A stretch of DNA of 64,000 bases from Acidimicrobiaceae bacterium (GCA_027306925.1 DAHUXW010000089.1:1773-65772), one strand, 5' to 3'; counted from the first letter of the stretch, positions 42,960 to 64,000 are shown. The notes: generated by a model not told the origin, from the letters alone. A program made the numbers and translations.

Positions 42960-42988
42960 CTCAAGCCGGGAGGGCGATCGGCCGATAG
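42960..42988 (+). promoter_or_regulatory. Sigma-28-like promoter candidate: CTCAAG-N15-GCCGATAG
   Basis: The -10 matches the classical FliA/SigD/WhiG GCCGATAA at 7 of 8 positions. It lies about 50 nt upstream of flbD-motA-motB-fliL. Confidence 0.6.
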
Positions 42989-49012: not shown

Positions 49013-49590
49013 CGGGCCTCGCGCTCCTGGCGCGCCCCCGACAGCGGCGCGCCGGCCAGGGACTCGAGGTCGGACGCGGACCACGCGGCCGCCTGTTGGT
49101 TGGCGCTGCGCATCGCGAGCCAGACCTCCTCGCGGTACACGCGCACGTCGTCCGGCGCCGCGATGCCGATCTTCACCTCGGACCCCGAAACCGAGAAGAC
49201 CGACACGCCGACCGCGCTTCGCATCTCGGCGATGCGCGCACTCAGCACGACGCGCCCCTGGTCGATCGAGGAGACCTCGAGCTCGATCCCGTCGAACGCG
49301 ATGTGCTCGCCGAGGGCGGGGTTCAACAGGAGCACCGCGTCGTCTCCCTCGGCCGGGTCGCCCGTGCGCACGGTCGTCGTCCCGTCGGCGCGGTGGATCT
49401 CCACCGGGTGACGCACCCCCACGCACGCGCGCTCCGCGGTGACCGCGAGCGGTGCGACGACGACCGGGACCGGGACCGACGGAGCCGCGAACGAGAGCCA
49501 CGCGTGGTGGTCCACGACGTCGACGAGCGTGACGACGAGCCCGCCGTCGAACACGATCGCCTCCTGGGCACGCCTGCGCAGGACCAGCAC
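49009..49590 (-). CDS. CsrA-like protein with internal duplication (about 193 aa; candidate single-chain pseudo-dimeric CsrA)
   Basis: GTG at 49590 preceded by GGGGAGGGA. VLVLRRRAQEAIVFDGG compares with Bacillus CsrA MLVLSRKINEAIQIG (recalled from memory). A second unit reads VLLLNPALGEHIAFDGI...KIGIAAPDDVRVYREEVW, followed by the tail NQQAAAWSASDLESL. The stop codon overlaps the fliW stop (CTAG). Confidence 0.65.
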   Translation of the reverse strand: MLVLRRRAQEAIVFDGGLVVTLVDVVDHHAWLSFAAPSVPVPVVVAPLAVTAERACVGVRHPVEIHRADGTTTVRTGDPAEGDDAVLLLNPALGEHIAFDGIELEVSSIDQGRVVLSARIAEMRSAVGVSVFSVSGSEVKIGIAAPDDVRVYREEVWLAMRSANQQAAAWSASDLESLAGAPLSGARQEREAR

Positions 49591-49702: not shown

Positions 49703-49987
49703 TCAGGAGGTGGGCGGTGCTTCGTCCGTTCCACCGCCTCCGGACCAGAACGCCTGGCGTGCAGCGATCGACTCGGTGACCCGGCGCTCGATCTCCTTCT
49801 GGCGAGCCTCGCGCGCGTAGGTGTCGACCGTGCGCTCGACGATCGCCCCGACCGCCCAGCACACGAGCAGCCCGAGGCTCAGGCGGACGAGCGCGGTCGC
49901 GACGGTGATGCCGCCGTTGAACGCCTCGGCGATCGAGGGCAGCGATACGACTATGGCCGCGACGACGACGATCTCGATGCGCTTCAC
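49703..49987 (-). CDS. Small membrane protein (94 aa, two TM segments) downstream of the flhF-like gene
   Basis: GTG at 49987 within ORF 49703..50275. Product VKRIEIVVVAAIVVSLPSIAEAF...LSLGLLVCWAVGAIV, then a charged C-terminus. Confidence 0.45.
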   Translation of the reverse strand: MKRIEIVVVAAIVVSLPSIAEAFNGGITVATALVRLSLGLLVCWAVGAIVERTVDTYAREARQKEIERRVTESIAARQAFWSGGGGTDEAPPTS

Positions 49988-50001
49988 CCCGGGCACGGCG
50001 C

Positions 50002-51279
50002 TCAGCGCTCCCCCGGCACGTCCGGTGCGTGCCGCGTCGCGAGCAGCTCGCTCCACCGTCGAGCGGTCGCGGGGGCATCCCCGATCCGTGCGACGGGAAC
50101 GCCCGCCCGCACGACCGCGGCAGGGGTGACAGTCGCATCGAGGTCGTCGACGACGAGCGCGTCGAGCCCGCCGGCGCTCGCGGCGAAGCACGCGACGTCC
50201 TCGGGCTTCGCGGCCGCGCTCACGACCGCCCACGCCGCCGTGGGGCGCAGGGCGTGCAGGACGGTCCGGCACCACCGGGCCGACGCGCGGTCCGTGCCGG
50301 TGCCCACCGCGACGACGGCGACCCCGTCACGTCGCCATCCGGGCGAGAGCGCGGCCGCTGTGCGTGCGTCGGTGGCGATCAGGTGGGTCGGGACCGCGAA
50401 GCCGGGGCGGTCCGCCGCTACGACCGCGATCTCGGCGTCGTCGAGACCGAGGTCGTCGATGATCGTGCTCGCGATCTCGAGCGCGCGCCCGAGCTCCCCG
50501 ACGACGGCGATCAGCGCGCCGGCCACGTCGGGCAGCGGGCTGGCGGCAGGCAGGAGCGCGCAGGCCGCGTCGATCGCGGCGAGCGGCGCGAGCCGGCCGG
50601 GGACCCGGTCGACGAGCTCGCGTGGGAACCCGAGCCCGTCGAGCGTCTCGCGCGCGGCGCGGGGCGCACCAACGGCGTTCGGCGGGCCGGGCGCGGAGAA
50701 GTCGCGCTCGCCGGCCGGCGCCTCGCCGGCCTCGCCCGCCGCGAGGCGTCGGAGCTCTCCGAGCGGGTCGTCGAAGCGCCCGACGGCGGACCGCTCGCGC
50801 CGTGCGGCCGCCTCGCGGGCCGCGCCCGGCGCCTCGTGACCAGCGGTCTCGCGCTCGACCACCTCGGTCGCGAGCGCGCCCGCGGTCGCGAGGCCGGCGA
50901 TCCCCGACGCGGCGAACGTGGCCGGATCGTCGCCGAGGGCGCTCGCGACACCGTCGAGCACCTCGTCGAACGAGCGCCGGGGCGGGCCGTCGACCTCGAA
51001 CACGTCCTCCGTCGACTCGACCAGGCGCTCGAGGGCGCTCGCGGTGGTCACCGGCGCCTGGGTCGCGGCGCGCGCCGTGGAGCGCGACGCGGGCGGTTCG
51101 GGCACGGCCGGTAGGACCTCGATGCGGTAGTGGAGCTTCTGGAAGAAGCCGAAGAGCCCGCCTTTGCGCACGCACGCGGGCTCGCTGATCCGCACGCCCG
51201 TGCCGTGCACGCTCCAGGCGTCGATCAGGAGCTTCTCGGGGTCGGGGCCCTCAAATACCAGCGGTAGCGTTGACACCAC
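50002..51279 (-). CDS. flhF: FlhF-like protein with degenerate GTPase motifs
   Basis: Sits immediately downstream of flhA with a 29-nt overlap. The N-terminal VRKGGLFGFFQK is FlhF-like. The NG-like region is collinear with FlhF, but the P-loop position reads IAVVGELGRALE, the DTAGR position reads AVGTGTD, and the TKLD position reads VDDLD. Confidence 0.6.
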   Translation of the reverse strand: MVSTLPLVFEGPDPEKLLIDAWSVHGTGVRISEPACVRKGGLFGFFQKLHYRIEVLPAVPEPPASRSTARAATQAPVTTASALERLVESTEDVFEVDGPPRRSFDEVLDGVASALGDDPATFAASGIAGLATAGALATEVVERETAGHEAPGAAREAAARRERSAVGRFDDPLGELRRLAAGEAGEAPAGERDFSAPGPPNAVGAPRAARETLDGLGFPRELVDRVPGRLAPLAAIDAACALLPAASPLPDVAGALIAVVGELGRALEIASTIIDDLGLDDAEIAVVAADRPGFAVPTHLIATDARTAAALSPGWRRDGVAVVAVGTGTDRASARWCRTVLHALRPTAAWAVVSAAAKPEDVACFAASAGGLDALVVDDLDATVTPAAVVRAGVPVARIGDAPATARRWSELLATRHAPDVPGER

Positions 51280-53323
51280 TCACCACTCCTATCCGTTCCA
51301 GCTGGACCTGCCGGCCGATCTCGCTCACCGACATGACCGCGAGCCGCGGGATCGCGGCCGCGAAGAGGTGCGCGAGCGCCGGGCGCAGCGCCGAGCCCAC
51401 GACGAGCACGGGCTCGCGTCCGGCGCGGCTGCCTGCGTCGTAGAGGGAGCGCACCTCGCCGACGAGCTGCTCGGTGACCTGGGGCTCGATGCCGAGCACG
51501 GTGCCCTGGTCGGTCACGCGGATGCTGTAGAGGAGGACCTGCTCGAACGCGGCGTCGACCGTCATCGCGGCGAGCTTGCCGTTGCGAGAGTGCGACGCGG
51601 TGATGAGCGGTCCGAGCGCGGTCCGCGCGGCCTCGACCAGCGACTCGTGGCTCTTGTTCGGCTGCCGGGAGCGGGCGGTCACGGCCTCGACGATCCGGAC
51701 GAAGTCGACGATCGGAACGCCCTCGTCCAGGAGCGACGCGAGGACGCGGTGGAGCTCGACGAGGGAGACCTGGGCGAGCTTCAGCTCCTCGACGGCCGCC
51801 GGGTCCGTGGCCTTCGCGGCGTCGAGGAGGATCTGGACCTGCTGGACCGAGAGGAGGTCCGCGGCGTGCCGGGTCACGACCTCCGCGAGGTGGGTGATGA
51901 TCGCGGACGACGGGTCGATCGGCGTGATGCCCGCGACCGCGATCGCCTGCTCGCGGGTCTCTGCGGGGATCCACTTCGCGGGGAGGCCGAACGCGGGCTC
52001 GGTCGTCGAGATCCCGGTAAGGAGGTCGATTCCCGGGCCGATCGCGAGCATCCGAGCCGGGTGGGCCTCGCCCCGAGCGACCTCGACGCCGTTCACACGG
52101 ATCGCGTAGCTGTTCGGCGGCAGGTTGATGTTGTCGTGCGTCCGCACTGTCGGGATCGCGAAGCCACGCTCGAGTGCGACCTTGCGTCTCAGGCCGCGCA
52201 CGCGCTCGAGGAGGTCGCCGCCGTGCGCGGCGTCCGCGAGCGGCGTGACGTTCGCCGCGAGCTCGAGCTCGAGGCGCTCCGCGCGCATCTCGCTCGCGAG
52301 CGCTTGCGGAGTGTCGAGCACGGGCGGGGCGACCGAGTCGAGCTCTGCGCGTGCCGCGTCGCTCGCGCGTGTCTCGGCCGCGCGGCGTGTGCGCGTGGAG
52401 AGCAGGACGAGCAGGCCACCGATGACGAAGAAGGGAAGGTGCGGGAGGCCGGGCACGAGTGCGAGGAGCATCATCGCGGCGCCCGCGATCTGCAGGGCGC
52501 GCGGCTGAGCGCGGAACTGGTCGACGATGTCGTTGCCGAAGTCCGAGTCGTCTCCGGTGCTCCCGCGGGTCACGATGAGCCCGGTTGAGATCGAGAGCAG
52601 GAGCGCCGGGATCTGCGACACGAGCCCGTCTCCGATCGAGAGGATCGAGTAGGTGTGGATCGCCTGGGACATCGACAGGTGGTGGCCGATCACGCCGATG
52701 AGGAAGCCCCCGAACAGATTGATCACCGTGATGATGAGCGCGGCGATCGCGTCGCCGCGGACGAACTTGCTCGCGCCGTCCATGTTCCCGTAGAACTCGG
52801 ACGTCTCGTCGATCTCCTTGCGCCGCCGTCGCGCCTCGGCCTCGTCGATCAGCCCGGAGTTCAGCTCGCCGTCGATCGCGAGCATCTTCGGTCCCATCGC
52901 GTCGAGCGAGAAGCGCGCGGAGACCTCCGACACGCGGCCCGCGCCGCTCGTCACGACGACGAACTGGATGATGATGAGGATCAGGAAGACGACGATCCCG
53001 ACGACGATCTGGCCGCCGATCACGAAGCTCCCGAAGCTCTGCACGACCGCCCCCGCGTAGCCGTGGAGCAGGACGAGCCGGGTGACGCTCACGTTGATCG
53101 CGAGCCGGAACATCGTCGCGATGAGGAGCAGCGACGGGAAGCCGGAGAAGTCGCGCGCCTTGTCGACGTGCATCGTCATGAGCAGCACGATGAGCGCGGC
53201 GGAGATGTTCACGGTGATGAGCAGGTCGAGCAGGAACGACGGCAGCGGCACCACGAGCATCACGATGATGACGATGACCGCCGCGGGGACCCCGAAGAGG
53301 CCGATCTTCTGACCGGTCTTCAC
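51251..53323 (-). CDS. flhA: Flagellar type III export apparatus protein FlhA
   Basis: 690 aa. Has FPSLLLIATMFRLAINVSVTRLVL, FVVVTSGAGRVSEVSARFSLDAMGPKMLAIDGELNSG and FYGNMDGASKFVRGDAIA. Confidence 0.95.
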   Translation of the reverse strand: MKTGQKIGLFGVPAAVIVIIVMLVVPLPSFLLDLLITVNISAALIVLLMTMHVDKARDFSGFPSLLLIATMFRLAINVSVTRLVLLHGYAGAVVQSFGSFVIGGQIVVGIVVFLILIIIQFVVVTSGAGRVSEVSARFSLDAMGPKMLAIDGELNSGLIDEAEARRRRKEIDETSEFYGNMDGASKFVRGDAIAALIITVINLFGGFLIGVIGHHLSMSQAIHTYSILSIGDGLVSQIPALLLSISTGLIVTRGSTGDDSDFGNDIVDQFRAQPRALQIAGAAMMLLALVPGLPHLPFFVIGGLLVLLSTRTRRAAETRASDAARAELDSVAPPVLDTPQALASEMRAERLELELAANVTPLADAAHGGDLLERVRGLRRKVALERGFAIPTVRTHDNINLPPNSYAIRVNGVEVARGEAHPARMLAIGPGIDLLTGISTTEPAFGLPAKWIPAETREQAIAVAGITPIDPSSAIITHLAEVVTRHAADLLSVQQVQILLDAAKATDPAAVEELKLAQVSLVELHRVLASLLDEGVPIVDFVRIVEAVTARSRQPNKSHESLVEAARTALGPLITASHSRNGKLAAMTVDAAFEQVLLYSIRVTDQGTVLGIEPQVTEQLVGEVRSLYDAGSRAGREPVLVVGSALRPALAHLFAAAIPRLAVMSVSEIGRQVQLERIGVVSGVNATAGI

Positions 53324-53389: not shown

Positions 53390-53418
53390 CTAACGGCGGG
53401 TGGGACGGCCGAGTTGAG
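53390..53418 (-). promoter_or_regulatory. Sigma-28-like promoter candidate (minus strand): CTCAAC-N15-GCCGTTAG
   Basis: Intergenic, about 65 nt upstream of the flhA GTG, in the correct orientation. Same architecture as the plus-strand sites. Confidence 0.55.
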
Positions 53419-53449: not shown

Positions 53450-54844
53450 CTAGCGCCGGCAGAACGCCATGACACGGTCGGCCATGTAGTCGAGCTGCCG
53501 TTCCGACATCCCCGGGTAGAGGCCGATCCACAGCGAACGCTCCATGAGCCGGTCGGTCGCAGCGAGGTCGCCCACGACGCGGTAGCCCTCGCCTGACGCG
53601 CGCATCTCGTCGAAGCACGGGTGCCTGAGCAGGTTGCCGGCGAAGAGCGCACGCGTCTGCACCCGCTCGGACTCGAGCCAGCGCGCGAGGTCCGTGCGCT
53701 CGAAGGGTGCGTCGTCGCGAACCTGGAGGAGGAAGCCGAACCAGCTCGGGTCCGCGCGCTCGGTCGCCACCGGGAGGTCGAGCACGTCGGCGACCGGCTC
53801 GAGCGCGTCGCGCAGGTACGCGAAGTTCGCGCGGCGGGCCGCGCCGAACGCCTCGAGCTTGTCGAGCTGCGCGACCCCGATGGACGCCTGGAGGTCGGTC
53901 ATCTTCAGGTTGTAGCCGAAGTGCGAGTACGTGTACTTGTGGTCGTAGCCGCAGGGGAGCGTGCCGAACTGCTGGTCGAAGCGCTTGCCGCACGTGTTGT
54001 CCCGTCCGGAGCGGCAGTAGCAGTCGCGGCCCCAGTCGCGGAGCGAGGCGACGATGGCGTCGAGCTCGTCGTCCGAGGTGAACACGGCTCCGCCCTCGCC
54101 CGTCGTCATGTGGTGCGCGGGGTAGAAGCTGCTCGTCGCGACGTGGCCGAACGTGCCCGTCGGGCGGGTGGAGCGCTCGAGGATGGAGGTGTAGCGCGAG
54201 CCGAGCGCGTCGCAGTTGTCCTCGAGGAGCCAGAGGTCGTGGCGTCTACAGAAGCCGAGCACGGCGTCGACGTCGAACGGGTTGCCGAGCGTGTGCGCGA
54301 GCGAGACGGCTCGGGTCTTCGGGCTGAGTGCTGCCTCGAGCTGGCGGACGTCGACGTTTGCGGTCGTCGGGTCGACGTCGACGAACACCGGGGCCGCACC
54401 GTGCTGGACGATCGGCGCGACAGTGGTCGGGAAGCCCGCCGCCACCGTGATCACCTCGTCGCCGCGACGGATGCGGCGCTCGCCGAGCCGCGGCGAGGTG
54501 AGCGCGGCGAACGCCACGAGGTTCGCGGACGATCCCGAGTTCACGAGCCGGCAGGAGGACACGCCGAGGGTGGCGGCGAGGCGGGCCTCGAGAGCCGCCG
54601 CGTGGCGGCCCTCGGTGAGCCAGAACTCGAGCGACGCATCGACGAGGTTGCGCACCTCGGCGTCGTCGTAGACGCGCCCGGCGAAGCGCACCGGTGTGCG
54701 GCCCGGGACGAACGGCAGGCGCTCGGCGTCGGCAGCTGCGACGTAGCGGGTGACGAGCGCGAGGATCTGCTCGCGAAGCTCGCGCGCGGTGGGTCGCGCG
54801 CCGACTCCGTCGCCGGCCCCGATGAGGATCTCGGTGGTCGTCAC
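53450..54844 (-). CDS. ddhC: CDP-4-keto-6-deoxy-D-glucose-3-dehydrase (E1; RfbH/DdhC-like, DegT family)
   Basis: GTG at 54844 (GTGA overlap). FYPAHHMTTGEGG has His in place of the PLP lysine, which is the E1 hallmark. The Cys cluster DWGRDCYCRSGRDNTCGKRF is also present. Confidence 0.8.
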   Translation of the reverse strand: MTTTEILIGAGDGVGARPTARELREQILALVTRYVAAADAERLPFVPGRTPVRFAGRVYDDAEVRNLVDASLEFWLTEGRHAAALEARLAATLGVSSCRLVNSGSSANLVAFAALTSPRLGERRIRRGDEVITVAAGFPTTVAPIVQHGAAPVFVDVDPTTANVDVRQLEAALSPKTRAVSLAHTLGNPFDVDAVLGFCRRHDLWLLEDNCDALGSRYTSILERSTRPTGTFGHVATSSFYPAHHMTTGEGGAVFTSDDELDAIVASLRDWGRDCYCRSGRDNTCGKRFDQQFGTLPCGYDHKYTYSHFGYNLKMTDLQASIGVAQLDKLEAFGAARRANFAYLRDALEPVADVLDLPVATERADPSWFGFLLQVRDDAPFERTDLARWLESERVQTRALFAGNLLRHPCFDEMRASGEGYRVVGDLAATDRLMERSLWIGLYPGMSERQLDYMADRVMAFCRR

Positions 54845-55977
54845 GTGAGCGACCCGGCGCGCGCACGACCGGCGTGCGCGAGGACGCCGGGGTCGAGGTA
54901 GCAGTCGATCTGCCGCTCGAGCGCCCGCGCCGCGCAAAAGCCTGTCGCGCGCCGTGCCGCGTGGTACCATTCGACCGTCCAGCGCACTGCGTCGGTCAGG
55001 TCGAGACGCGGCGTCCAGCCGAGACGGGCTTGCGCCTTCGTGCTGTCGAGGGTGAGAACAGCCCGCTCCGGCGCGCGGTTCCCGACCGGCAGGCGGAGCT
55101 CGACGAGACCGCCCCCGCCGAGCTCGCTCCACGACGCCTCGACGAGTGCGACGAGCTGGCCGACCGTCGCGACGCTGCGCGGGTCCGGGCCGAAGTTCCA
55201 GGCCTCGGCGGCCGCGTGCGACTCATCGGCGAGATGGGCGCCGAGCAGGAGGTAGCCGGCGACGACGTCGAGCACGTGCTGCCAGGGGCGCACTGCGTCG
55301 GGTCGGCGGAGATCGAGCGGCATGCCGGTGTCGAGCGCGCGCACGCAGTCCGGGACGATCCGTCCGGGCGCGAAGTCGCCGCCGCCGACGATGTTGCCGG
55401 CCCGTGCGGTCGCGAGCGCGGGACCGCCGCCGAAGAACGACGCGCGGTACGCGTGGGCGACGAGCTCTGCCGCGCCCTTGCTCGCGCTGTAGGGGTCGTC
55501 GCCGCCGAGGTGGTCGGCCTCGAGGTGCGCGCCGTCGCGCGTCGCGTAGCACTTGTCGCTCGTCACGACGACGCAGCTCGCGACGGACCCGACGCGCCGG
55601 ACGGCGTCGAGGACGTGGACCGTGCCCATGACGTTCGTGTCGAAGGTGGCGACCGGGTCGGAGTAAGAGGGGAGCACCAGGGCCTGTGCGGCGAGGTGGA
55701 AGACGACCTCCGGCTGGACGCGGCGGATGACGTCTGCGACCCGGGCCGCGTCGCGCACGTCGGCGATCTCCTCGCGCGCGTACTCGCACAGCTCGCCCGG
55801 CGCGAGCGGACCGGGCCCCGCCGCGAGCGACAGCCCCGTGACGTCGGCTCCGCAGCGGGCGAGCCAGACGCAGAGCCACGTCCCCACGAAGCCGTTGTGG
55901 CCGGTCACGAGGACGCGCTTGTCGCGATAGGCGCCGGCGAACAGGTCCTCGTAGGCGCGTGCCGTCGATGCGGTCAC
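54841..55977 (-). CDS. ddhB: CDP-glucose 4,6-dehydratase (RfbG/DdhB-like)
   Basis: GTG at 55977 (GTGA overlap). Has VLVTGHNGFVGTWL, PYSASKGAAEL and RAGNIVGGGD. Confidence 0.8.
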   Translation of the reverse strand: MTASTARAYEDLFAGAYRDKRVLVTGHNGFVGTWLCVWLARCGADVTGLSLAAGPGPLAPGELCEYAREEIADVRDAARVADVIRRVQPEVVFHLAAQALVLPSYSDPVATFDTNVMGTVHVLDAVRRVGSVASCVVVTSDKCYATRDGAHLEADHLGGDDPYSASKGAAELVAHAYRASFFGGGPALATARAGNIVGGGDFAPGRIVPDCVRALDTGMPLDLRRPDAVRPWQHVLDVVAGYLLLGAHLADESHAAAEAWNFGPDPRSVATVGQLVALVEASWSELGGGGLVELRLPVGNRAPERAVLTLDSTKAQARLGWTPRLDLTDAVRWTVEWYHAARRATGFCAARALERQIDCYLDPGVLAHAGRARAGSLT

Positions 55978-56744
55978 TCCCAGACCTTCCACGGCGCGCG
56001 GCCCGAGGCCCACAGCTCCTCGAGCGCGGTGCGGTCTCGGAGCGTGTCCATGGCGTGCCAGAAGCCGTGGTGCTGGTACGCGGAGAGCTGGCCTTCGGCC
56101 GTGAGGCGCTCGAGCGGCTCGCGCTCCCAGGCGGTGAGCTCGTCGTCCACGTACCCGAGGACGTCGGGCGACAGGACGAAGAACCCGCCGTTGATCCACG
56201 CATCGCCGCCGGACGGCTTCTCCTTGAACCGAGCCACCATGTCCCCGGCGAGCTCGAGCGCGCCGAAGCGGCCGGGTGGCAGGATCGCCGTGACCGTCGC
56301 CAGGCGACCCTGCGCGAAGTGGAAATCGACGACCTTGCGCACGTCGACGTCCCCGACCGAGTCGCCGTAGGTCATCGCGAAGTGGTCGTCCTCGATGTAG
56401 CGCGCGACCTTTGCGAGGCGCCCGCCCGTCTGGGTCGCGTCGCCGGTGTCAACGAGCGTGACGGTCCACGGCTCGACGTCGTGGCGGTGGATCTCCACCG
56501 AGCCGGTCTTCAGGTCGAAGCTGACGTCGGAGTTGTGGAGCACGTAGTTCGAGAAGTACTCCTTGATCGCATAGCCCCGATAGCCGCAGCAGACGACGAA
56601 GTCGTTGAAGCCCGCCGCGGAGTAGATCTTCATGATGTGCCAGAGGATCGGGCGGCCCCCGATCTCGACCATCGGCTTCGGCTTCGTGTGGGTCTCCTCC
56701 GACAGCCGGGTCCCGAGACCGCCGGCGAGGATGACGACTTTCAT
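55974..56744 (-). CDS. ddhA: Glucose-1-phosphate cytidylyltransferase (RfbF/DdhA-like)
   Basis: ATG at 56744. Has MKVVILAGGLGTRLSEETHTKPKPMVEIGGRPILWHIMKIYS and WINGGFFVL. Confidence 0.85.
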   Translation of the reverse strand: MKVVILAGGLGTRLSEETHTKPKPMVEIGGRPILWHIMKIYSAAGFNDFVVCCGYRGYAIKEYFSNYVLHNSDVSFDLKTGSVEIHRHDVEPWTVTLVDTGDATQTGGRLAKVARYIEDDHFAMTYGDSVGDVDVRKVVDFHFAQGRLATVTAILPPGRFGALELAGDMVARFKEKPSGGDAWINGGFFVLSPDVLGYVDDELTAWEREPLERLTAEGQLSAYQHHGFWHAMDTLRDRTALEELWASGRAPWKVWE

Positions 56745-56820
56745 CGGCGTGGCGCTCCTCCCGTGCGGGCACGCGGCGCGTTCGCGTGCACCAGTCGCGA
56801 CCCGCGGGTCGTCGCTGGTC

Positions 56821-56849
56821 GTAACGGCGCGGGACGCGCGGACGTTGAG
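56821..56849 (-). promoter_or_regulatory. Sigma-28-like promoter candidate (minus strand): CTCAAC-N15-GCCGTTAC
   Basis: About 75 nt upstream of the ddhA ATG. Nearly identical to the flhA site (CTCAAC-N15-GCCGTTAG). Confidence 0.55.
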
Positions 56850-56923
56850 CGGTGGCCGCCGCGGCGGGCGACGTGCTCGGTAGGATGCCCGCCGACGCAA
56901 GCCGGACCCCGGAAGGCCCGCGA

Positions 56924-57988
56924 ATGGACCGCACGAGATCGATCATCGACTCCGACCTCGAGCGCATCGCGCGTGACCCGGTGCCGTGGGACCGCCTCGA
57001 AGGCGCGATCGTGCTCGTCACCGGTGCGACCGGTCTCGTCGGCTCGTACCTCGTCGAGGCGCTCGTCGCGCGCCGGGCGCCCGCGCACCGGCGCACGAAG
57101 GTGGTCGTGCTCGCGCGCTCGCCGTCGCGGGCGGCGGCGCGCTTCGCACACCTGGACGCGAGGCACGTCCGGGTCGTCGAGCACCGGCTCGACGCACCGC
57201 TCGCGCTCGAGGGGCGCGCGGACTACGTCGTGCACGCAGGCGCGCCCGCACAGCCGACGGCGTTCGCCGCGGACCCGGTCGGCACCTACGTCCCGAACGT
57301 CGTCGGGACCCACCACCTTCTCGAGTGGGCCGCCGACCGGGGCGTGGCGCGGTTCGCATTCGTGAGCAGCGGCGCGGCAAACGGCGCCGTCCCGCTCGAG
57401 CGCGGGCCGTACGACGAGGACGTCTACGGGCCGCTCGACCCCCTCGACCCGTACGCCTGCTACGCGGAGTCGAAGCGGATGGGGGAGGCGGCGTGCATGG
57501 CCTGGCACCGCCAGACCGGCCTCGAGACCGTCGTCGCGCGGCTGGGCCACACGTACGGCCCGGGCCTCGCCCGCTCCGACGCGCGCTCGTTCGCGGAGTT
57601 CGTGTACTGCGCAGTCGACGGCAGGGACATCGTGCTGCGGACCGCGGGGGAGGCGAGACGGCCGTTCTGCTACCTCACCGACGCCGTGACCGGGTTGCTC
57701 ACGACGCTCGTCGCCGGTGCCGCGGGCCGCGCGTACTTCGTCGTGAACGACGCCGCAGCGTGCTCGATCCTCGAGCTCGCGCAGCTCGTCGCCCGGCTGT
57801 CCCCAGCGCCCGGAATCTCCGTGCGCACGCTCGACGCGCCGCCGGGAGGTGCGCGGGGAGTCCACCCCGCCGGGGACCGCGAGCTCGCGATGCCCGTGGC
57901 GGCGCGTCTGCGCGCGCTCGGATGGGCTCCGCACGTCGGGCTCGCCGAAGGCTTCGCTCGCACCGTCGCCGCACACCTCGGCGGCTGA
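56924..57988 (+). CDS. NAD-dependent epimerase/dehydratase family (SDR) protein
   Basis: VLVTGATGLVGSYL Rossmann motif and YAESKRMGE (YxxxK). Start ATG 56924 is preceded by GGAAGG. Alternatives are 56885 and 56852. Confidence 0.75.
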   Translation: MDRTRSIIDSDLERIARDPVPWDRLEGAIVLVTGATGLVGSYLVEALVARRAPAHRRTKVVVLARSPSRAAARFAHLDARHVRVVEHRLDAPLALEGRADYVVHAGAPAQPTAFAADPVGTYVPNVVGTHHLLEWAADRGVARFAFVSSGAANGAVPLERGPYDEDVYGPLDPLDPYACYAESKRMGEAACMAWHRQTGLETVVARLGHTYGPGLARSDARSFAEFVYCAVDGRDIVLRTAGEARRPFCYLTDAVTGLLTTLVAGAAGRAYFVVNDAAACSILELAQLVARLSPAPGISVRTLDAPPGGARGVHPAGDRELAMPVAARLRALGWAPHVGLAEGFARTVAAHLGG

Positions 57989-58039
57989 CCCCAGACTCCG
58001 GCGGTTCCCGGGCGAGGCCGCGCGCATCGACGCCGCGTC

Positions 58040-58067
58040 CTCAACTCCCGTCGGGCGCGGACGTTAG
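58040..58067 (+). promoter_or_regulatory. Sigma-28-like promoter candidate: CTCAAC-N14-GACGTTAG
   Basis: Lies in the 227-nt gap between the SDR gene and the ThDP-enzyme gene. The spacer is one nt shorter than in the other sites. Confidence 0.4.
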
Positions 58068-58215
58068 GCGACCCTGTAGTCGAACGTGGCAGGAAGCTTT
58101 GTCCCGTGGGCGCCCAACGGATGGGGCGTCGGTGTTGCGCCATCGGATCTGGCGACATCGAGAGTGCGCAGCGTACGTGCGACCTGACTCGCCGCTGTGG
58201 GCAGAGGAGGATGCC

Positions 58216-60108
58216 ATGGGTTCCGATACGGCCGCCGTCGAGTCGGCCGCGCCCGTGCGGGTCGTCGACTGGATCGCCGCGGCGCTGCGAGCCCGCGGCA
58301 TCGACCAGGTGTTCACCGTGACGGGCGGCGGCGCGATGCACCTCGACGACGCGGTCGGCGCGGACGACGCGCTCGACGTCGTGTGCATGCTCCACGAGCA
58401 GGCCGTGGCAATCGCGGCCGAGGCGTACACGAAGGCGTCCGGGAAGCTCGCGCTCGCGCTCGTGACCGCCGGCCCCGGAGGGACGAACGCGATCACCGGT
58501 GTCGCGGGCGCGTGGCTCGACTCGACGCCGATGCTCGTGATCTCCGGCCAGGTGAAGCGGGCCGACCTCGTCGGCACGACCGGCGTGCGCCAGCGTGGCG
58601 TCCAGGAGCTCGACCTCGGCGCGATCGTCAAGTCGATCACGAAGTACACCGCGCTCGTATGCGATCCGCTCCAGATCCGCTACCACCTCGAGCGGGCGCT
58701 CCACCTCGCGACGACTGGACGCCCCGGTCCCGTCTGGCTCGAGGTCCCGCTGGACGTCCAGGCGGCGCTCGTGAGCCGCGCCGAGCTCGTCGGCTTCGAA
58801 CCGTCCGAGCTCGGCGGAGCGACGACGCTCGATCGTCGCGAGGTGCGGCGCGCGGCATCGCTCGTTCTCGACGCGCTCGCCGAGAGCGAGCGCCCGCTCC
58901 TGCTCGTGGGCGCCGGCGTACGCCTCGCGCACGCGGAGCGCGAGCTACTCCGGCTCGTCGACTCACTCGGGATCCCGGTGCTCACCACCTGGCCGGCGAT
59001 GGGACTCGTGGGGGACGAGCACCCGCTGCACCTCGGCCGGCCGGGCCCGCTCGCGGGCCGTGGCTCGAACTTCGTGCTGCAGACCGCGGATCTCGTGCTC
59101 TGCCTCGGGGCGCGACTCGATCTCGTGACGACCGGTTACGACCCGAAGGACTTCGCGCGCAACGCCCGGAAGTTCGTCGTCGACATCGACCCCGCCGAGC
59201 TCGCGAAGCTGGAGGGGGCGATCGACACCGCGATCTGTGCGGACGCCGGCGATTTCATCGCCGAGCTCGCCCGTGAGGCGCCGAGCCGCCCGGCGCGCGA
59301 TCGTCGGCGGTGGGCGGCACGCGGTCGCGAGCTGGTCGAGGCGTACCCGATCGTGTGCGAAGAGCACCGGGCCCGTGGCGGGCGCGTGTCGACGTACCAC
59401 TTCGCCGACGTGCTCTCCGATCTGCTCGGCGACGACGACGTGCTCGCACCGTGTAGCTCGGGGCTCGCGATCGAGATATTCCTGCTCGCCTTGCGCCTGA
59501 GGACCGGTCAACGGGCGGTCTTCACGACGGCGCTCGGCGCCATGGGCTACGGGCCGCCGGCGGCGATCGGCGCATGCATCGCGTCGGGACGGCGACGCAC
59601 GATCTGCGTGGACGGGGACGGAGGGTTCCAGCTGAACGTGCAGGAGCTCGAGACGATCCGCCGGCTCGCGCTTCCCGTGAAGATGTTCGTGCTCGAGAAC
59701 GGCGGCTACGCGTCGATCCGGGCGTCGCAGCAGCGGTGGTTCGGGCGCCTGGTCGGCGCGGACGCGTCGAGTGGCGTGACGCTCCCTCCCGTCGAGGGCC
59801 TCGCACACGCGTACGGCCTTCCGTTCGTCCGCATCGACGGCCACGAGCCCCTCGAGCCCCAGCTGCGCGCCGTCCTCGACGCTCCCGGCCCCGTCGTTTG
59901 CGAGGTTCCGTCGCCGCCGGACGAGCGGCGCGAACCGGCACAGGTGAGCGAGGCCCTCGCGGACGGCGGGATGCGCTCGCGTCCGATCGAGGACCTCGCG
60001 CCGCTCCTGGCGAGAGCGGAGCTCGCGGCGAACCTCGCGGCGGCGTGCGCCGCGACCTCTGACGGGCCGGCGGACGCCCGGCACGAGAACGACGAGGTGC
60101 ACCGATGA
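58216..60108 (+). CDS. Thiamine-diphosphate-dependent enzyme (acetolactate-synthase-like fold; YerE-like candidate)
   Basis: ATG at 58216 preceded by GAGGAGGA. Has VFTVTGGGAMHL, HEQAVAIAAEAYTK, TAGPGGTNAITGVAGAWLDSTPMLVISGQ and the ThDP motif GDGGFQLNVQELET...NGGY. Confidence 0.8.
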   Translation: MGSDTAAVESAAPVRVVDWIAAALRARGIDQVFTVTGGGAMHLDDAVGADDALDVVCMLHEQAVAIAAEAYTKASGKLALALVTAGPGGTNAITGVAGAWLDSTPMLVISGQVKRADLVGTTGVRQRGVQELDLGAIVKSITKYTALVCDPLQIRYHLERALHLATTGRPGPVWLEVPLDVQAALVSRAELVGFEPSELGGATTLDRREVRRAASLVLDALAESERPLLLVGAGVRLAHAERELLRLVDSLGIPVLTTWPAMGLVGDEHPLHLGRPGPLAGRGSNFVLQTADLVLCLGARLDLVTTGYDPKDFARNARKFVVDIDPAELAKLEGAIDTAICADAGDFIAELAREAPSRPARDRRRWAARGRELVEAYPIVCEEHRARGGRVSTYHFADVLSDLLGDDDVLAPCSSGLAIEIFLLALRLRTGQRAVFTTALGAMGYGPPAAIGACIASGRRRTICVDGDGGFQLNVQELETIRRLALPVKMFVLENGGYASIRASQQRWFGRLVGADASSGVTLPPVEGLAHAYGLPFVRIDGHEPLEPQLRAVLDAPGPVVCEVPSPPDERREPAQVSEALADGGMRSRPIEDLAPLLARAELAANLAAACAATSDGPADARHENDEVHR

Positions 60109-61340
60109 CCGTGACTCTCCCCGCGGGCGTCACCGCGGTCGACGGCGAGGCCTCGCTCGAGGCGATGCTCGCCGAGCCGGTCGAGGAAGCGCGCGTGCGC
60201 GAGCGCGGGACGTTCGAGATGGCGGCCCGGCACCGGACCGAGCGCATCGTGCTGCTCGGGGCCGGCGGCCTCGGCCGCCGGACTCTCGCGGGGCTCCGTG
60301 CGGCCGGGGTCGAGCCGCTCGCGTTCGCGGACAACCGTGCGAGCTCGCACGGGTCCACTGTCGACGGTGTCGAGGTGCTCGCCCCGGAGGACGCGTCGGC
60401 ACGCTTCGGTGCGGACGCCGTGTTCGTGGTGACGATCTGGGGCGCGGGTAGCACGCACCGCTTCGCCCACTCACGTGACCAGCTCGTCGCGCTCGGGTGC
60501 GACTGCGTCGTCCCCGCGGCGTGGCTCTTCTGGCGCTACGCCGAGCAGCTTCTCCCGTTCTACGCGCTCGACCTGCCCTCGCGTCTGCTCGAGCAGGCGA
60601 CCGAAGTGCGCACGTGCTACGAGTCGTTCGCGGACGAGCGGTCTCGGGCGGAGTACGTCACGCAGGTTCGCTGGCGCCTCACCGGTGACCCGGGGGGTCT
60701 CGCCCACCCGGTCGGGGAGGCGCAGTACCTCGTCACCGACGTCGCGGTCCCGGCAGACGGCGACGTGGTGCTCGACTGCGGCGCGTACGACGGCGACACG
60801 CTTCGCTCGTGGATGGCGGTGCGCGGCCCGTCGTTCCGGGAGTACGTGGCGATGGAGCCGGACCCGCAGAGCCGCGCCCGTCTCGCTGCGTGCGTCGCGG
60901 CGATGGACGACGGCCTACGGCAGCGCGTTCGGGTCCTCCCGTACTCGGTGGGCGGCCGGACGGGGACCGCGACGTTCAGCGCGTCGGGGTCGCTCTCGTC
61001 ATCGCTCGGCGAGGGAGGCGGGATCGAGGTCGAGTGCGTCCGGCTCGACGACCTGCGCGACGAGCTCGGTGGAGCGTCACCGACCTTCGTGAAGGTGGAC
61101 ATCGAAGGCGCCGAGCTCGACGCGCTCGCGGGCGCGGCGTCGCTCGTTCGCGAGTGCCGACCGATGATCGCGATCGCCGCCTACCACCGCCAGGACCACC
61201 TGTGGCGCGTTCCGCTCGCGGTGCGTGCGCTGTGGCCCGGGTACGCGCTCTTCCTCCGGCCGCACAACGAAGAGGGTTGGGACCTCATCCTCTACGCGGT
61301 TCCGCCGGATCGCGTGCCGGGGCGCCGAACCGCGAAGTGA
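60105..61340 (+). CDS. FkbM family methyltransferase with N-terminal Rossmann-like domain
   Basis: IVLLGAGGLGRR at the N-terminus. FkbM core VLDCGAYDGDT...FVKVDIEGAELDAL. Confidence 0.75.
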   Translation: MTVTLPAGVTAVDGEASLEAMLAEPVEEARVRERGTFEMAARHRTERIVLLGAGGLGRRTLAGLRAAGVEPLAFADNRASSHGSTVDGVEVLAPEDASARFGADAVFVVTIWGAGSTHRFAHSRDQLVALGCDCVVPAAWLFWRYAEQLLPFYALDLPSRLLEQATEVRTCYESFADERSRAEYVTQVRWRLTGDPGGLAHPVGEAQYLVTDVAVPADGDVVLDCGAYDGDTLRSWMAVRGPSFREYVAMEPDPQSRARLAACVAAMDDGLRQRVRVLPYSVGGRTGTATFSASGSLSSSLGEGGGIEVECVRLDDLRDELGGASPTFVKVDIEGAELDALAGAASLVRECRPMIAIAAYHRQDHLWRVPLAVRALWPGYALFLRPHNEEGWDLILYAVPPDRVPGRRTAK

Positions 61341-62380
61341 CCGTGCCCACCTTGCTCGCACACGAGACGGTCGCAGACTGGCTCGACTGGCGCGCCCGCG
61401 CCGCTGCGCGGGCGCACTCCCGGCGCTGGAGCCCGTCTCCGAGCGGTGCGTACTCGCTGTTCGGCGCGGGCGAGGAGCCGCTCGGCGAGGGTGCAGTCGT
61501 GGTCGCGGTCGACGACGTGTCGCCGACGGTGCGCGCCTCGCTCCTCGCCCCCGCCGACCTTCTCGTCGCGCGCGGCGTCCCGGTCGCGCTCCTCGCACCG
61601 GCTCACCTCGCAGATGCGCTCGCGGTGCGCGGCTTTCGCGCGGTCGCGGACTTCCGGGACCCGTCCAGGTCGCCGGTGGCGCCTGCGGCCGTGCTCGCAC
61701 TGTCGCACGCGGTGGGCGCCGGAGCGGCGGGGTGGGTGCTCGCGGGACGCGTGCACGCGCCGTTCCTCGTCGTCCAGCACGGTGTCGTCACCCCGTACGC
61801 GCCGCCTCTTCCCGCGGGTGCCGTCCTTCTCGCATGGTCGGCGCGAGACGCCGCGTTCTGGCTCGCGGGGCGCGTGGAGCTGGAGGTGGAGGTCGTCGGG
61901 AGCGAGCTCCTGTGGCAGGCGGCCCAGCTCCGTCGCGAGCGAGCCGACGCCGGGGAGCGGCTCTGCTTTCTCGGCCAGCTCCACGGAGCGGAGCTGGGGC
62001 GCGACGTGACCGTTCGCACGGTCGCGTCGATCGCGCGCACGCGTCCGGTCCTGTACCGCCCGCATCCCGCGGAGCGCGACCCGCTGAGCCTCGTGCGGCA
62101 CGAGCGGTGGCGCCGTGGGGGAGTCACGGTCGGCTCGCCGAACGTGCCGCTCACCGACGAGGAGGGTCCCGTCGTCGGGATCTTCTCGACGGGGATCCTC
62201 GAGGCGGCCGCGTGCGGCCTGGACGCGTACGCGACGTGCGCCCGCCCGCCCGGGTGGGTGGAGGAACTCTGGCTCCGATACTCGATGGCGCCGCTCGGGG
62301 CCCGCGAGGCAACCGTGGTGACCGTTCCTCCACGGCGACCCGCCGAGGCGATCGCGGACCTCGTGGAGGCGCGGAGGTGA
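61337..62380 (+). CDS. Hypothetical protein, possibly a GT-B-like transferase, within the sugar operon
   Basis: GTG at 61337 (GTGA overlap). The C-terminal RPHPAER...VVGIFSTGILEAAACGLDAY resembles the nucleotide-sugar-binding half of GT-B / capsule-type transferases. This is weak. Confidence 0.4.
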   Translation: MTVPTLLAHETVADWLDWRARAAARAHSRRWSPSPSGAYSLFGAGEEPLGEGAVVVAVDDVSPTVRASLLAPADLLVARGVPVALLAPAHLADALAVRGFRAVADFRDPSRSPVAPAAVLALSHAVGAGAAGWVLAGRVHAPFLVVQHGVVTPYAPPLPAGAVLLAWSARDAAFWLAGRVELEVEVVGSELLWQAAQLRRERADAGERLCFLGQLHGAELGRDVTVRTVASIARTRPVLYRPHPAERDPLSLVRHERWRRGGVTVGSPNVPLTDEEGPVVGIFSTGILEAAACGLDAYATCARPPGWVEELWLRYSMAPLGAREATVVTVPPRRPAEAIADLVEARR

Positions 62381-63081
62381 TCGTCGGGCGCGGCACACCG
62401 TTCCTCGCCGTTGTCCCGGCACGCGGGGGTTCGAAGCGGGTTCCGGGAAAGAACCGGCGTCTTCTCGCGGGACGTCCGCTCGTCGAGTGGTCGATCGAGC
62501 ACGTGGCGCGGTGCACGACGCCGATGCGCCTCGTGGTGAGCACCGACAGCAGCGAGATCGCCGCCCTCGCTGTCGCCGCAGGGGCGGAGGTTCCCTTCAT
62601 CCGCCCGGCGGAGCTCGCGACCGACGAGGCGCCGACCGAGCCGGTGCTCATCCACGCGCTCGACGCGACGCCCGGCGCGTCCGAGGCGGAGCACGTCGTG
62701 CTGCTGCCGCCGACGTCCCCGATCCGCCGCGACGGGTCGATCGACTCGGCGGTCGCCCGTTACCGAGGGCTCGGTGCGGACAGCCTCGTGAGCGTCACCG
62801 AGGCGAGCCCGTTGCAGTGGAGCGGTCCGCTCGACTCGCCGCGGCCGCTCTACGACACGAACGTGCGCCCGCGTCTGCAGAGCGTCGCACCGCAGATGCG
62901 CAGGTACCGGGAGAACGGGAACATCGTCATCACTTCCGCGGCCGGGCTTCGCGCATCGGGCAACCGCATCTGCGGCAAGACGGTGATGTTCGTCATGAGC
63001 CCCGAGGAAGGCATCGACCTCGACCGCGAGTACGACTTCTGGATGGCCGAGCAGTGGTTACGGAGCGCACATGCTTATTGA
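62377..63081 (+). CDS. Acylneuraminate cytidylyltransferase family (CMP-nonulosonic acid synthetase, NeuA/PseF-like)
   Basis: GTG at 62377 (GTGA overlap). Has AVVPARGGSKRVPGKNRRLLAGRPLVEWSIEH and LLPPTSPIRR. Confidence 0.8.
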   Translation: MIVGRGTPFLAVVPARGGSKRVPGKNRRLLAGRPLVEWSIEHVARCTTPMRLVVSTDSSEIAALAVAAGAEVPFIRPAELATDEAPTEPVLIHALDATPGASEAEHVVLLPPTSPIRRDGSIDSAVARYRGLGADSLVSVTEASPLQWSGPLDSPRPLYDTNVRPRLQSVAPQMRRYRENGNIVITSAAGLRASGNRICGKTVMFVMSPEEGIDLDREYDFWMAEQWLRSAHAY

Positions 63082-64000
63082 ACGAGACATCGCACGGTAC
63101 TGCGTCGCGAGCGACGAGACGGTCGAGGAGGCGCTCCGGCAGATCGCGCGCAACGGGAGGCGCACGGTGTTCTGCATCGAGCAGTCCGGAGCGCTCGCGG
63201 GCGTGATCACCGACGGCGACTTCCGCCGCTGGCTCCTCGCGAACCCCGGGGGACCGCTCTCGACGTGCGCGCTGTCGGTCGCGAACCGGTCGTACGTCTC
63301 GGCCCGGTCTGGAGCTTCGTACGACGAGATCGAGGCGCTGTTCAGCGAGGCGATCCAGCTCGTGCCGGTCGTCGACGACCGTGGGCGGCTGGTCGCGGTC
63401 GCGCGTCCCCGCACACGCACGCTGTGGATCTCCGGGCACGAGGTCGCGGCGGGCTCGCCGACGTTCGTCGTCGCGGAGATCGGAATCAACCACAACGGAA
63501 GCCTGGACGTCGCGAAGCGACTCGTCGACGTCGCCGCGCGAGCGGGCGTGAACTGTGCGAAGTTCCAGATGCGCGACCTCGTCTCGCTCTACCGGAACTC
63601 CGGCGCGGTCGGCGACTTCCGCGAGGACCTCGGCCCGCAGTACACGCTCGACCTGCTCGAGCGGTTCTCGCTCGGCGTCGACGAGATGGTGGAGCTCTTC
63701 GACTATTGCCGGAGCGTCGGCCTCGTCCCGCTGTGCACGCCGTGGGACCTCGAGAGCGCACGGGTGCTCGACGACTACGGGATCCCGGCGTACAAGGTCG
63801 CGTCCGCGGACCTCACGAACCACGCGCTCGTGTCGCTCCTCGCGCAGAGCGGACGGCCGGTGATCCTCTCGACGGGAATGTCGACCGAGCAGGAGATCGT
63901 CGAGACCGTCGCGCTGCTCCGGTCGGCCGGGACAGCCTACGCGCTGCTTCACTGCAACTCGACCTACCCGGCGCCGTTCAAGGATGTGAACCTGCGCTAC
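63071..64000 (+). CDS. CBS-domain / N-acetylneuraminate-synthase-family (NeuB/PseI/LegI-like) fusion; 3' end outside the window
   Basis: Own translation from ATG 63071 (open to the window end, so absent from the ORF track). Product starts MLIERDIARYCVASDETVEEALRQIARNGRRTVFCIEQSGALAGVITDGDFRRWL (CBS). It continues FVVAEIGINHNGSLDVAKRLVDVAARAGVNCAKFQMR...YKVASADLTNHALV...LHCNSTYPAP. Confidence 0.8.
   Translation, partial: MLIERDIARYCVASDETVEEALRQIARNGRRTVFCIEQSGALAGVITDGDFRRWLLANPGGPLSTCALSVANRSYVSARSGASYDEIEALFSEAIQLVPVVDDRGRLVAVARPRTRTLWISGHEVAAGSPTFVVAEIGINHNGSLDVAKRLVDVAARAGVNCAKFQMRDLVSLYRNSGAVGDFREDLGPQYTLDLLERFSLGVDEMVELFDYCRSVGLVPLCTPWDLESARVLDDYGIPAYKVASADLTNHALVSLLAQSGRPVILSTGMSTEQEIVETVALLRSAGTAYALLHCNSTYPAPFKDVNLRY

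Follow-up and report, generated by a model that had tools for sequence, protein, structure and literature searches.

The genes at positions 53450-60108 of a 64,000-nt stretch of DNA from an Acidimicrobiaceae bacterium (the window; 72% guanine plus cytosine, GC) probably make up the sugar-nucleotide section of an island for flagellin glycosylation that makes an acyl-branched 3,6-dideoxy sugar joined to cytidine diphosphate (CDP). The minus strand carries ddhA, ddhB, and ddhC, the last encoding the 3-dehydrase E1. Divergent from these are genes for a short-chain dehydrogenase/reductase (SDR) and a thiamine diphosphate (ThDP)-dependent enzyme of about 630 amino acids (aa), followed by an FkbM-type methyltransferase gene. 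A first-pass annotation had read this gene set as a pathway similar to that of yersiniose. All of its genes and coordinates were confirmed when genes were called by third-position GC (GC3 frame analysis) and checked against Pfam and NCBIfam family scans, and the family motifs were intact. The searches extended beyond the 64-kb window to the whole genome (2.87 Mb, 97.6% complete). The type of pathway, a ddh route combined with a YerE-like ThDP enzyme and a reductase, is already established. What is distinct here is an enzyme of the JanthE clade, a putative NeuB-type donor synthase, the lack of an E3 reductase, and the flagellar regulon.

The ThDP enzyme is, on sequence grounds, a predicted YerE-like carboligase of the JanthE clade rather than of the clade of PpYerE and YpYerE, and not an acetolactate synthase. 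Its gene (58216-60108, plus strand) has its best start at the ATG at 58216, preceded by a GAGGAGGA ribosome-binding site, and encodes a 630-aa protein with the three ThDP domains PF02776, PF00205, and PF02775. The HEQ motif with the catalytic Glu is at residue 60, and the GDG-N27-N cofactor motif is at residue 467. The gene is separated from the SDR gene by 227 bp and lies about 1.5 kb from ddhA and 3.4 kb from the E1 gene. JanthE, a YerE-like carboligase from Janthinobacterium that accepts ketones (PMC12188165, PMC12247030), is the best match among all PDB sequences (8RPH, 394 bits, about 40% identity), and the alignment runs end to end and includes the C-terminal extension. Lower scores are obtained with PpYerE (5AHK, 240 bits) and with acetohydroxyacid synthases (AHAS) of plants and bacteria (about 223-229 bits).

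For a maximum likelihood tree, the window enzyme was combined with JanthE, PpYerE, 80 homologues drawn from species-representative genomes, seven AHAS that exceed the curated cut-off, and further ThDP paralogues. The only characterized YerE-like anchors were JanthE and PpYerE, with sequences taken from PDB alignments; YpYerE, ErwE, MMAR_2332, and MyGE were left out. The window enzyme, JanthE, and the 80 homologues form one clade with a Shimodaira-Hasegawa approximate likelihood ratio test (SH-aLRT) support of 100, while the seven AHAS form a separate clade with a support of 98. The first-pass annotation had likened the enzyme to YerE, and the tree agrees with this, placing it with a characterized YerE-like enzyme and apart from bona fide AHAS. 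PpYerE and one uncharacterized paralogue from Acidobacteria are the sister group of the clade of JanthE and the window enzyme (SH-aLRT 99). In an earlier tree with a single AHAS outgroup, PpYerE was placed within the family, at the end of a very long branch; this tree was set aside, as the addition of six more AHAS and the paralogues moved PpYerE out. The label "YerE-like" therefore spans at least two deep clades, since PpYerE is outside that of JanthE and the window enzyme.

It is extremely improbable that the ThDP gene encodes an ordinary acetolactate or acetohydroxyacid synthase that lies beside sugar genes by chance. The enzyme does show the AHAS fold and motifs, and its homologues are publicly named "acetolactate synthase large subunit." The usual public name in the family, which had 7992 matches at E<=1e-30 among the 8000 candidates scored, is "acetolactate synthase." However, the window enzyme scores 320 bits against TIGR00118, the AHAS large subunit model, where the cut-off is 538, and all other AHAS models are also missed. 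The true AHAS of this genome is on another contig (C101, 749 bits). No gene for a small regulatory subunit adjoins the ThDP gene, the tree separates the enzyme from AHAS with supports of 98-100, and the synteny of ThDP and E1 genes is conserved across related loci.

These related loci also bear on the substrate of the enzyme. Eighty of them (L016-L095) were obtained from a scan of one genome per species with the ThDP homologue as the anchor, and they come from Acidimicrobiales, Acidobacteriota, Verrucomicrobiota, Bacillota, Pseudomonadota, Gemmatimonadota, Planctomycetota, the candidate phyla radiation, and others, more than ten phyla in all. Within 10 kb of the ThDP gene, E1 is found in 57 of the 80 loci, DdhA in 54, and DdhB in 48. 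Of the computational evidence for an action of the ThDP enzyme on the product of E1, this linkage, which spans phyla, is the strongest.

The acceptor pathway would comprise DdhA, DdhB, and E1. DdhA, a glucose-1-phosphate cytidylyltransferase (55974-56744, minus strand), scores 430.3 bits against TIGR02623 (cut-off 300.25) and covers its full length (1-255/255). DdhB, a CDP-glucose 4,6-dehydratase (54841-55977, minus strand), scores 373.7 bits against TIGR02622 (cut-off 278.45). DdhC/E1, a CDP-6-deoxy-L-threo-D-glycero-4-hexulose 3-dehydrase dependent on pyridoxamine phosphate and a [2Fe-2S] cluster (53450-54844, minus strand), scores 684.7 bits against the RfbH model NF011936 (cut-off 423). 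Overlaps of 4 nt join ddhA to ddhB and ddhB to ddhC. The E1 protein aligns end to end with E1 of Yersinia pseudotuberculosis (PDB 3BCX, 509 bits). In this alignment the FYPAHH motif with His in place of Lys is kept, as are all four [2Fe-2S] ligands in the arrangement C-X57-C-X1-C-X7-C (equivalent to C193, C251, C253, and C261), and the only Cys that is lost is the equivalent of C257, which is not a ligand. Among 52 full-length E1 homologues from the related loci, His220 and the four Cys ligands are invariant in all 52. The E1-type dehydrase with its FYPAHH motif and Cys cluster, and the ddhABC route to CDP-4-keto-3,6-dideoxyglucose, both of which had been proposed in the first-pass annotation, are borne out by the three curated equivalog cut-offs exceeded and the intact E1 residues. 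DdhA, DdhB, and E1 are thus predicted, by family membership, to make CDP-4-keto-3,6-dideoxyglucose.

The E3 reductase (DdhD/AscD) is missing, and this is a feature of the whole cassette family rather than a local gap. None had been seen in the window, and a search of the 97.6%-complete genome for ddhD/ascD, by Pfam NAD_binding_1 and Fer2 scans with reading of the open reading frames (ORFs), found no protein with an N-terminal Fer2 domain followed by FNR. The matches were limited to FNR-only, PyrK-like, ferric-reductase-like, and PDR-type proteins, and the sole Fer2-FNR fusion in the genome (contig C34) has the reverse domain order. By phmmer and motif search, none of the 80 related loci (0/80) has an FNR or Fer2 ORF within 10 kb of the ThDP gene. 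Because E3 is lacking in the genome and in all of these loci while the iron-sulfur ligands of E1 stay invariant, the absence can be assigned to the family. Flagellar islands of Clostridium that are predicted to make CDP-paratose likewise list only RfbF/G/H/S, without E3 (PMC13317340).

The SDR gene (56924-57988, plus strand) encodes an extended SDR with a UXS-like fold that may be a YerF-like ketoreductase for the branch. Its start codon is uncertain, the candidates being 56924, 56981, and 57011. The protein scores 138.7 bits against Pfam Epimerase with no NCBIfam equivalog, and the GATGLVG (GxxGxxG) and YAESK (YxxxK) motifs are intact. Its best PDB match is UDP-glucuronate decarboxylase (116 bits), and a homologous SDR is found in 48 of the 80 related loci. 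The lack of a specific equivalog assignment leaves room for a different pathway, in which the SDR would be a C-4 reductase like CDP-paratose or CDP-abequose synthase, the product an unbranched 3,6-dideoxyhexose, and the ThDP enzyme active elsewhere, for example on a NeuB-derived acid alone. The Clostridium islands with RfbF/G/H/S and no E3 are a precedent for such a product (PMC13317340). Nevertheless this pathway is very improbable. The closest solved relatives of the SDR are UXS-type and not known 4-reductases, the ThDP family is linked to E1 across phyla, and its characterized relatives are ketone-accepting carboligases (PMC12247030). The FkbM-family methyltransferase (60105-61340, plus strand), which has an extra N-terminal Rossmann-like domain, scores 70.8 bits against PF05050 and 79 bits against TIGR01444. 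Its gene is translationally coupled to the ThDP gene, starting at 60105 where the latter ends at 60108. FkbM genes are found in 41 of the 80 loci and are directly 3' of the ThDP gene in 25 of them.

The identity of the acyl donor is where the family probably departs from yersiniose. All ORFs in the loci were clustered without bias and the clusters were annotated afterwards; counts out of 81 are for the 80 related loci plus the island studied here. NeuB-family genes are present in 56 of the 81 loci, either as a short protein (45 loci) or as a long fusion of the type found in the window (12 loci, comprising 11 related loci and this island). Other clusters are a KdsC-type phosphatase of the haloacid dehalogenase (HAD) superfamily (43 loci), an ArnC-like glycosyltransferase of family 2 (GT2; 44 loci), a SIS isomerase (19 loci), a xylose-isomerase-like TIM barrel (17 loci), and an HMGL-type aldolase (9 loci). 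The gene order NeuB, KdsC-like phosphatase, ThDP enzyme is found in 37 loci and the order HMGL aldolase, ThDP enzyme in 8. NeuB and the aldolase are mutually exclusive, occurring together in none of the 9 HMGL loci. The presence of NeuB is clustered on the ThDP tree, with 12 changes compared to 33.7 in shuffles and 0 of 500 shuffles as low. A CTP_transf_3 cytidylyltransferase of the window type is present in only 4 of the 81 loci. BphI-type aldolases are members of the HMGL-like family. In the erwiniose cluster the donor is formed by ErwI, a BphI-like aldolase, and a published "unifying scheme" for acyl-branched sugars includes such a donor-supply enzyme (PMC9306805). There is also a precedent for YerE-like enzymes taking aldolase-made 4-hydroxy-2-keto acids as donors (PMC9306805). 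Taken together, the order of NeuB, phosphatase, and ThDP genes, the exclusion of NeuB by HMGL, the clustering on the tree, and the rarity of the cytidylyltransferase suggest that the NeuB-like enzyme holds the donor-supply position of the published scheme, and it would use phosphoenolpyruvate (PEP) where the published clusters use pyruvate.

The HMGL aldolase is approximately 537 aa in length with a long C-terminal extension. It occurs in Bacillota loci (L049, L056, L057, L059, L060, L066, L075, L093, and L095) and is directly 5' of the ThDP gene in eight of the nine. In four Pseudomonadota loci (L072, L073, L092, and L094) the long NeuB fusion has an HddA/HddC-like pair 5' of it, consisting of a CBS-GHMP kinase with a second NTP-transferase. 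This pair is a hint that NeuB in those loci may act on a heptose-type precursor; some of the loci also have a radical-SAM/SPASM gene 3' of the fusion.

In the island studied here, three genes follow FkbM on the plus strand. The first (61337-62380) encodes a 347-aa protein with a GT-B fold and no Pfam family, which may be a PseG-like nucleotide-sugar hydrolase or a glycosyltransferase. Its AlphaFold2 model has a predicted local distance difference test score (pLDDT) of 92, and the top Foldseek matches are PseG (3HBM/3HBN), UDP-GlcNAc 2-epimerase, and GT-B glycosyltransferases. Among the 80 related loci only L018 has a counterpart. About 200 homologues of around 345 aa were seen, mostly in Actinobacteria (Microbacterium, Leucobacter, Brachybacterium, Rathayibacter, and others), and their frequent public name, "RNA-binding protein," looks wrong in light of the modeled fold. 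The second gene (62377-63081) encodes a divergent CTP_transf_3 cytidylyltransferase similar to NeuA, PseF, and KdsB, which scores 62 bits against PF02348 and 112.5 bits against PseF, below the cut-off of 205.7. The third (63071-64000, continuing to the equivalent of window position 65317) encodes a 748-aa fusion of CBS, NeuB, SAF, and a xylose-isomerase-like TIM barrel, with Pfam matches to NeuB (273 bits), SAF, AP_endonuc_2, and CBS. The fusion is below the equivalog cut-offs of NeuB_NnaB (317.5 bits, cut-off 399.65) and PseI (232.7 bits, cut-off 340.25), and it is the sole NeuB-family gene of the genome.

Sialic-acid-type sugars were considered as products of this fusion. The genome lacks NeuC: its only Epimerase_2 protein is WecB (361 bits, cut-off 210), which scores 59 bits against the NeuC model (cut-off 236). 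No PseC/LegC-type aminotransferase is evident in the genome either, as E1 is the only strong DegT match and four others score 26-32 bits over part of the model. These results come from NeuC and DegT searches only; PseB/LegB-type dehydratases, PseH/LegH acetyltransferases, and LegG were not searched separately, and the GT-B protein could be a PseG-like hydrolase. Synthesis of canonical Neu5Ac, pseudaminic acid, and legionaminic acid was rejected on the basis of the single NeuB below cut-off, the lack of NeuC, and the lack of a strong DegT match besides E1, and these routes appear not to be encoded in the genome.

An alternative is that the island makes two sugars. The ThDP enzyme would use pyruvate to add a C2 acetyl branch and the SDR would complete a yersiniose-like CDP-sugar, while the GT-B protein, NeuB fusion, and cytidylyltransferase would make a non-aminated cytidine monophosphate (CMP)-nonulosonic or octulosonic acid for flagellin. 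NeuB, CTP_transf_3, and the PseG-like GT-B protein adjoin here and in L018, which has the same gene arrangement as the window, and this is the canonical CMP-ulosonic layout. Acids of this kind are often encoded in flagellin islands (PMC13317340), JanthE can take pyruvate as a substrate (PMC12247030), and no aldolase adjoins the ThDP gene in this locus. Across the family, however, NeuB is coupled to the ThDP enzyme without the cytidylyltransferase (56/81 vs 4/81), and it is mutually exclusive with an ErwI-like HMGL aldolase that takes the same position. In L016, whose ThDP enzyme is the most similar (64%), the ThDP gene is followed directly by a 748-aa NeuB fusion that is 66% identical and by nothing else, the retrieved flanking sequence having neither a cytidylyltransferase gene nor one for a GT-B protein. 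In addition, the NeuB, PseI, and PseF cut-offs are not reached in this genome, NeuC is lacking, and DegT matches other than E1 are weak. A two-sugar island is therefore unlikely.

Pyruvate as the donor of the ThDP enzyme, giving the C2 branch of yersiniose, is likewise on the unlikely side, if marginally less so. Use of the NeuB-fusion product is a tentative assignment that approaches an even chance, and the NeuB-derived acid is the more likely donor of the two. A long NeuB-derived branch is preferred because NeuB is present in most loci, the cytidylyltransferase is rare, and the genome appears to have no canonical nonulosonic route. The core logic of the first-pass annotation, ddhABC with a YerE-like carboligase and an SDR, is thus upheld by the JanthE clade and the E1 linkage across phyla, but its C2 yersiniose-like product from pyruvate is not, as the JanthE clade is tied to a NeuB-like synthase that is also present in this operon.

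The distribution of the cassette is patchy. Among 151 sampled genomes of the class, the ThDP family is found in this genome only, and among 40 relatives it is found only in two genomes of the same genus (95% and 77% identity) and in one other genus. This suggests that the cassette was acquired horizontally. In most other loci ArnC-like GT2 and GtrA genes accompany it; because of these neighbors, the cassette there appears to serve lipid-linked surface glycans.

Here, the location and the promoters point strongly to the flagellum, which the first-pass annotation had touched on only briefly. The island lies between flhA (51251-53323) and fliC/fliD (equivalent to window positions 79591-83007). 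Upstream are motA, motB, fliL, flgN, flgK, a flagellin-like flgL, fliW, csrA, and flhA. Downstream on the same contig are genes for an SDR, a GFO-family oxidoreductase, a methyltransferase, glycosyltransferase-like proteins, and two proteins of 905 and 1463 aa with GT2, GT4, and tetratricopeptide repeat (TPR) domains, followed by fliC and fliD. A pattern match to a FliA (sigma-28)-type promoter, TCAAC-N15-GCCGTTA, faces ddhA at 56822-56848 on the minus strand. A near-match with one mismatch, TCAAC-N14-GACGTTA, lies at 58041-58066 on the plus strand, in the gap between the SDR and ThDP genes 150 bp 5' of the latter, and is weak alone. The motif TCAA[CG]-N14-16-[GAC]C[CG]G[TA]TA has seven copies in the 2.87-Mb genome, compared to one to five in shuffled sequences. 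Five of the seven are on this contig, all of them intergenic and correctly oriented, 5' of motA, flhA, ddhA, a glycosyltransferase-like gene, and fliC (window positions 42961-42987, 53391-53417, and 56822-56848, and the contig C37 equivalents 68592 and 79442). There are two variants of the -10 element, GCCGATA before motA and fliC and GCCGTTA before flhA, ddhA, and the glycosyltransferase-like gene. The strict sigma-28 consensus, TCAAG-N15-GCCGATA, matches only motA and fliC, while the glycan operons carry the GCCGTTA variant. These patterns support co-regulation of the island with the flagellum by a predicted sigma-28-type factor. Flagellin is the likely glycan acceptor because of the position between flhA and fliC, the FliA-type promoters, and the TPR-bearing glycosyltransferases.

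In the flagellar region, a 193-aa ORF (49009-49590) that converges on fliW matches the CsrA domain twice, at separate places, which suggests a CsrA with an internal duplication. The ORFs in the flhF and flhG positions downstream of flhA (50002-51276 and 49703-49996) have no Pfam match at E<=0.01. On contig C37, a class-I methyltransferase whose N terminus carries a zinc-ribbon-like CxxC pair (68991-70175; window equivalent 67219-68403) and a GFO/IDH/MocA oxidoreductase (67966-68994; window equivalent 66194-67222) converge on the sugar operon, and homologues of these two are found in 12-13 of the 80 loci.

The pathway would proceed in five steps. First, DdhA, DdhB, and E1 would convert glucose-1-phosphate to CDP-4-keto-3,6-dideoxy-D-glucose, with electrons for E1 coming from an unlinked reductase. 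Second, the ThDP enzyme would decarboxylate a 2-keto acid and add the acyl anion equivalent to the C-4 ketone, producing a tertiary alcohol with a C-acyl branch. Third, the divergent SDR would reduce the carbonyl of the branch, as YerF does, and FkbM may methylate the product. Fourth, the donor for the second step would more likely be a 3-deoxy-2-ulosonic acid than pyruvate; the CBS-NeuB-SAF-TIM fusion would form this acid with PEP and an aldose as substrates, and the branch would then be a long polyhydroxyalkyl chain like that of caryophyllose or gastriose. Fifth, the GT2/GT4/TPR glycosyltransferases beside fliC would use the CDP-sugar, and the FliA-type promoters would tie expression to flagellar assembly. 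The first and fifth steps rest on family membership, and the second to fourth are ones that we infer. In its fullest form the proposal is that a PEP-dependent synthase of the NeuB family supplies a long acyl donor and not a sialic-acid-type sugar, leading to a methylated, CDP-activated, C-4-branched 3,6-dideoxyhexose of 12-15 carbons on flagellin under sigma-28 control, with E1 working without a dedicated E3. This combination is possible, but it should be held more loosely than the donor assignment itself.

A number of points weigh against this proposal. All of the pathway chemistry is deduced from genes alone, and flagellin as the acceptor only from location and promoters. Pyruvate is a substrate of both JanthE and MyGE in vitro (PMC12247030, PMC9306805), which leaves a C2 branch possible. 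The NeuB fusion of this locus lies three genes 3' of the ThDP gene and not directly 5', and it adjoins the cytidylyltransferase and PseG-like GT-B protein, a layout that classically marks a separate pathway to a CMP-ulosonic acid. No homologue of the KdsC-like phosphatase was found in the 26-kb stretch of the island entered in the ORF clustering. Turnover of E1 would depend on some other reductase, and the SDR might instead act at C-4, as a reductase like paratose or abequose synthase. With JanthE and PpYerE as its anchors, the tree cannot speak to orthology with YpYerE, ErwE, or MMAR_2332.

Comparison with known systems shows both shared and distinct parts. The yersiniose A pathway of Y. pseudotuberculosis O:VI (DdhA-D, YerE, YerF) shares with the island the acceptor-forming enzymes DdhA, DdhB, and E1, the pairing of a nucleotide-sugar SDR with a ThDP carboligase from the decarboxylase superfamily, and the predicted chemistry at C-4. 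It differs in that the island has no E3/DdhD and its ThDP enzyme is in the JanthE clade, with PpYerE, the solved homologue of YpYerE, outside (240 bits). The island probably uses a donor other than pyruvate and likely targets flagellin instead of O-antigen, and its host is of the Gram-positive type. Long branches on CDP-3,6-dideoxy-4-hexulose have been predicted from gene clusters (Steitz et al. 2022, PMC9306805). The clusters for erwiniose, caryophyllose, and gastriose (ErwE/ErwI/ErwJ/ErwF, MMAR_2331-2333, and MyGE/MygI/MygF; PMC9306805) similarly combine a YerE-like enzyme, a builder of a 4-hydroxy-2-keto acid donor, and a reductase. The donor enzyme there is a pyruvate aldolase of the BphI/HMGL or HpcH type, whereas here and in the majority of loci it would be a PEP-dependent synthase of the NeuB family. 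JanthE (Janthinobacterium sp. HH01, PDB 8RPH/8RPI/8RPJ) is the closest solved relative and belongs to the same clade, but it has a CDG ThDP motif in place of the canonical GDG of the window enzyme. It is also in or near a part of the tree whose loci are without NeuB, while the window enzyme is in a NeuB-linked subclade.

Flagellar islands of Clostridium butyricum, C. sporogenes, and others (PMC13317340) resemble this one in having ddh/rfbFGH genes without E3 and TPR-containing GT2 candidates for flagellin glycosylation. Their predicted product is unbranched paratose, and PMC13317340 makes no mention of a ThDP enzyme (neither "thiamine" nor "acetolactate" occurs in it). The CMP-nonulosonic pathways (NeuB/PseI/LegI, NeuA/PseF, PseG/NeuC) also have counterparts in the adjacent NeuB-SAF, CTP_transf_3, and PseG-like GT-B genes. 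In contrast to those pathways, NeuB here is part of a fusion with CBS and a TIM barrel, the partners of its orthologues are ThDP genes and not cytidylyltransferases, and the cut-offs are not reached. A gene-cluster prediction covering over 200 enzymes of the YerE-like kind has been published (Krug et al. 2024, as cited in PMC12247030). No NeuB-type donor route with a YerE-like enzyme was found in the literature searched, which did not cover the set of Krug et al. 2024. Literature searches on NeuB and thiamine together with branched sugars, and on CDP-glucose dehydratase together with flagellin, gave no match.

Acyl-branched sugars, among them yersiniose, erwiniose, caryophyllose, and gastriose, are rare as surface determinants and are known so far from lipopolysaccharide and mycobacterial lipooligosaccharides. 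The same chemistry is now predicted in an actinobacterial flagellar regulon, and flagellin could thus carry acyl-branched sugars. The lack of E3 beside an E1 with its full set of iron-sulfur ligands makes the in vivo reductant of E1 a direct question. If the proposed pathway is correct, this would be the first acyl-branched sugar on a flagellum, and the donor route would be a widespread and undescribed one (56 of the 81 sampled loci, more than ten phyla). Many genes named acetolactate synthase and N-acetylneuraminate synthase in at least ten phyla would need re-annotation. YerE-like enzymes with bulky polyhydroxylated donors would also join the biocatalysis toolbox for chiral tertiary alcohols.

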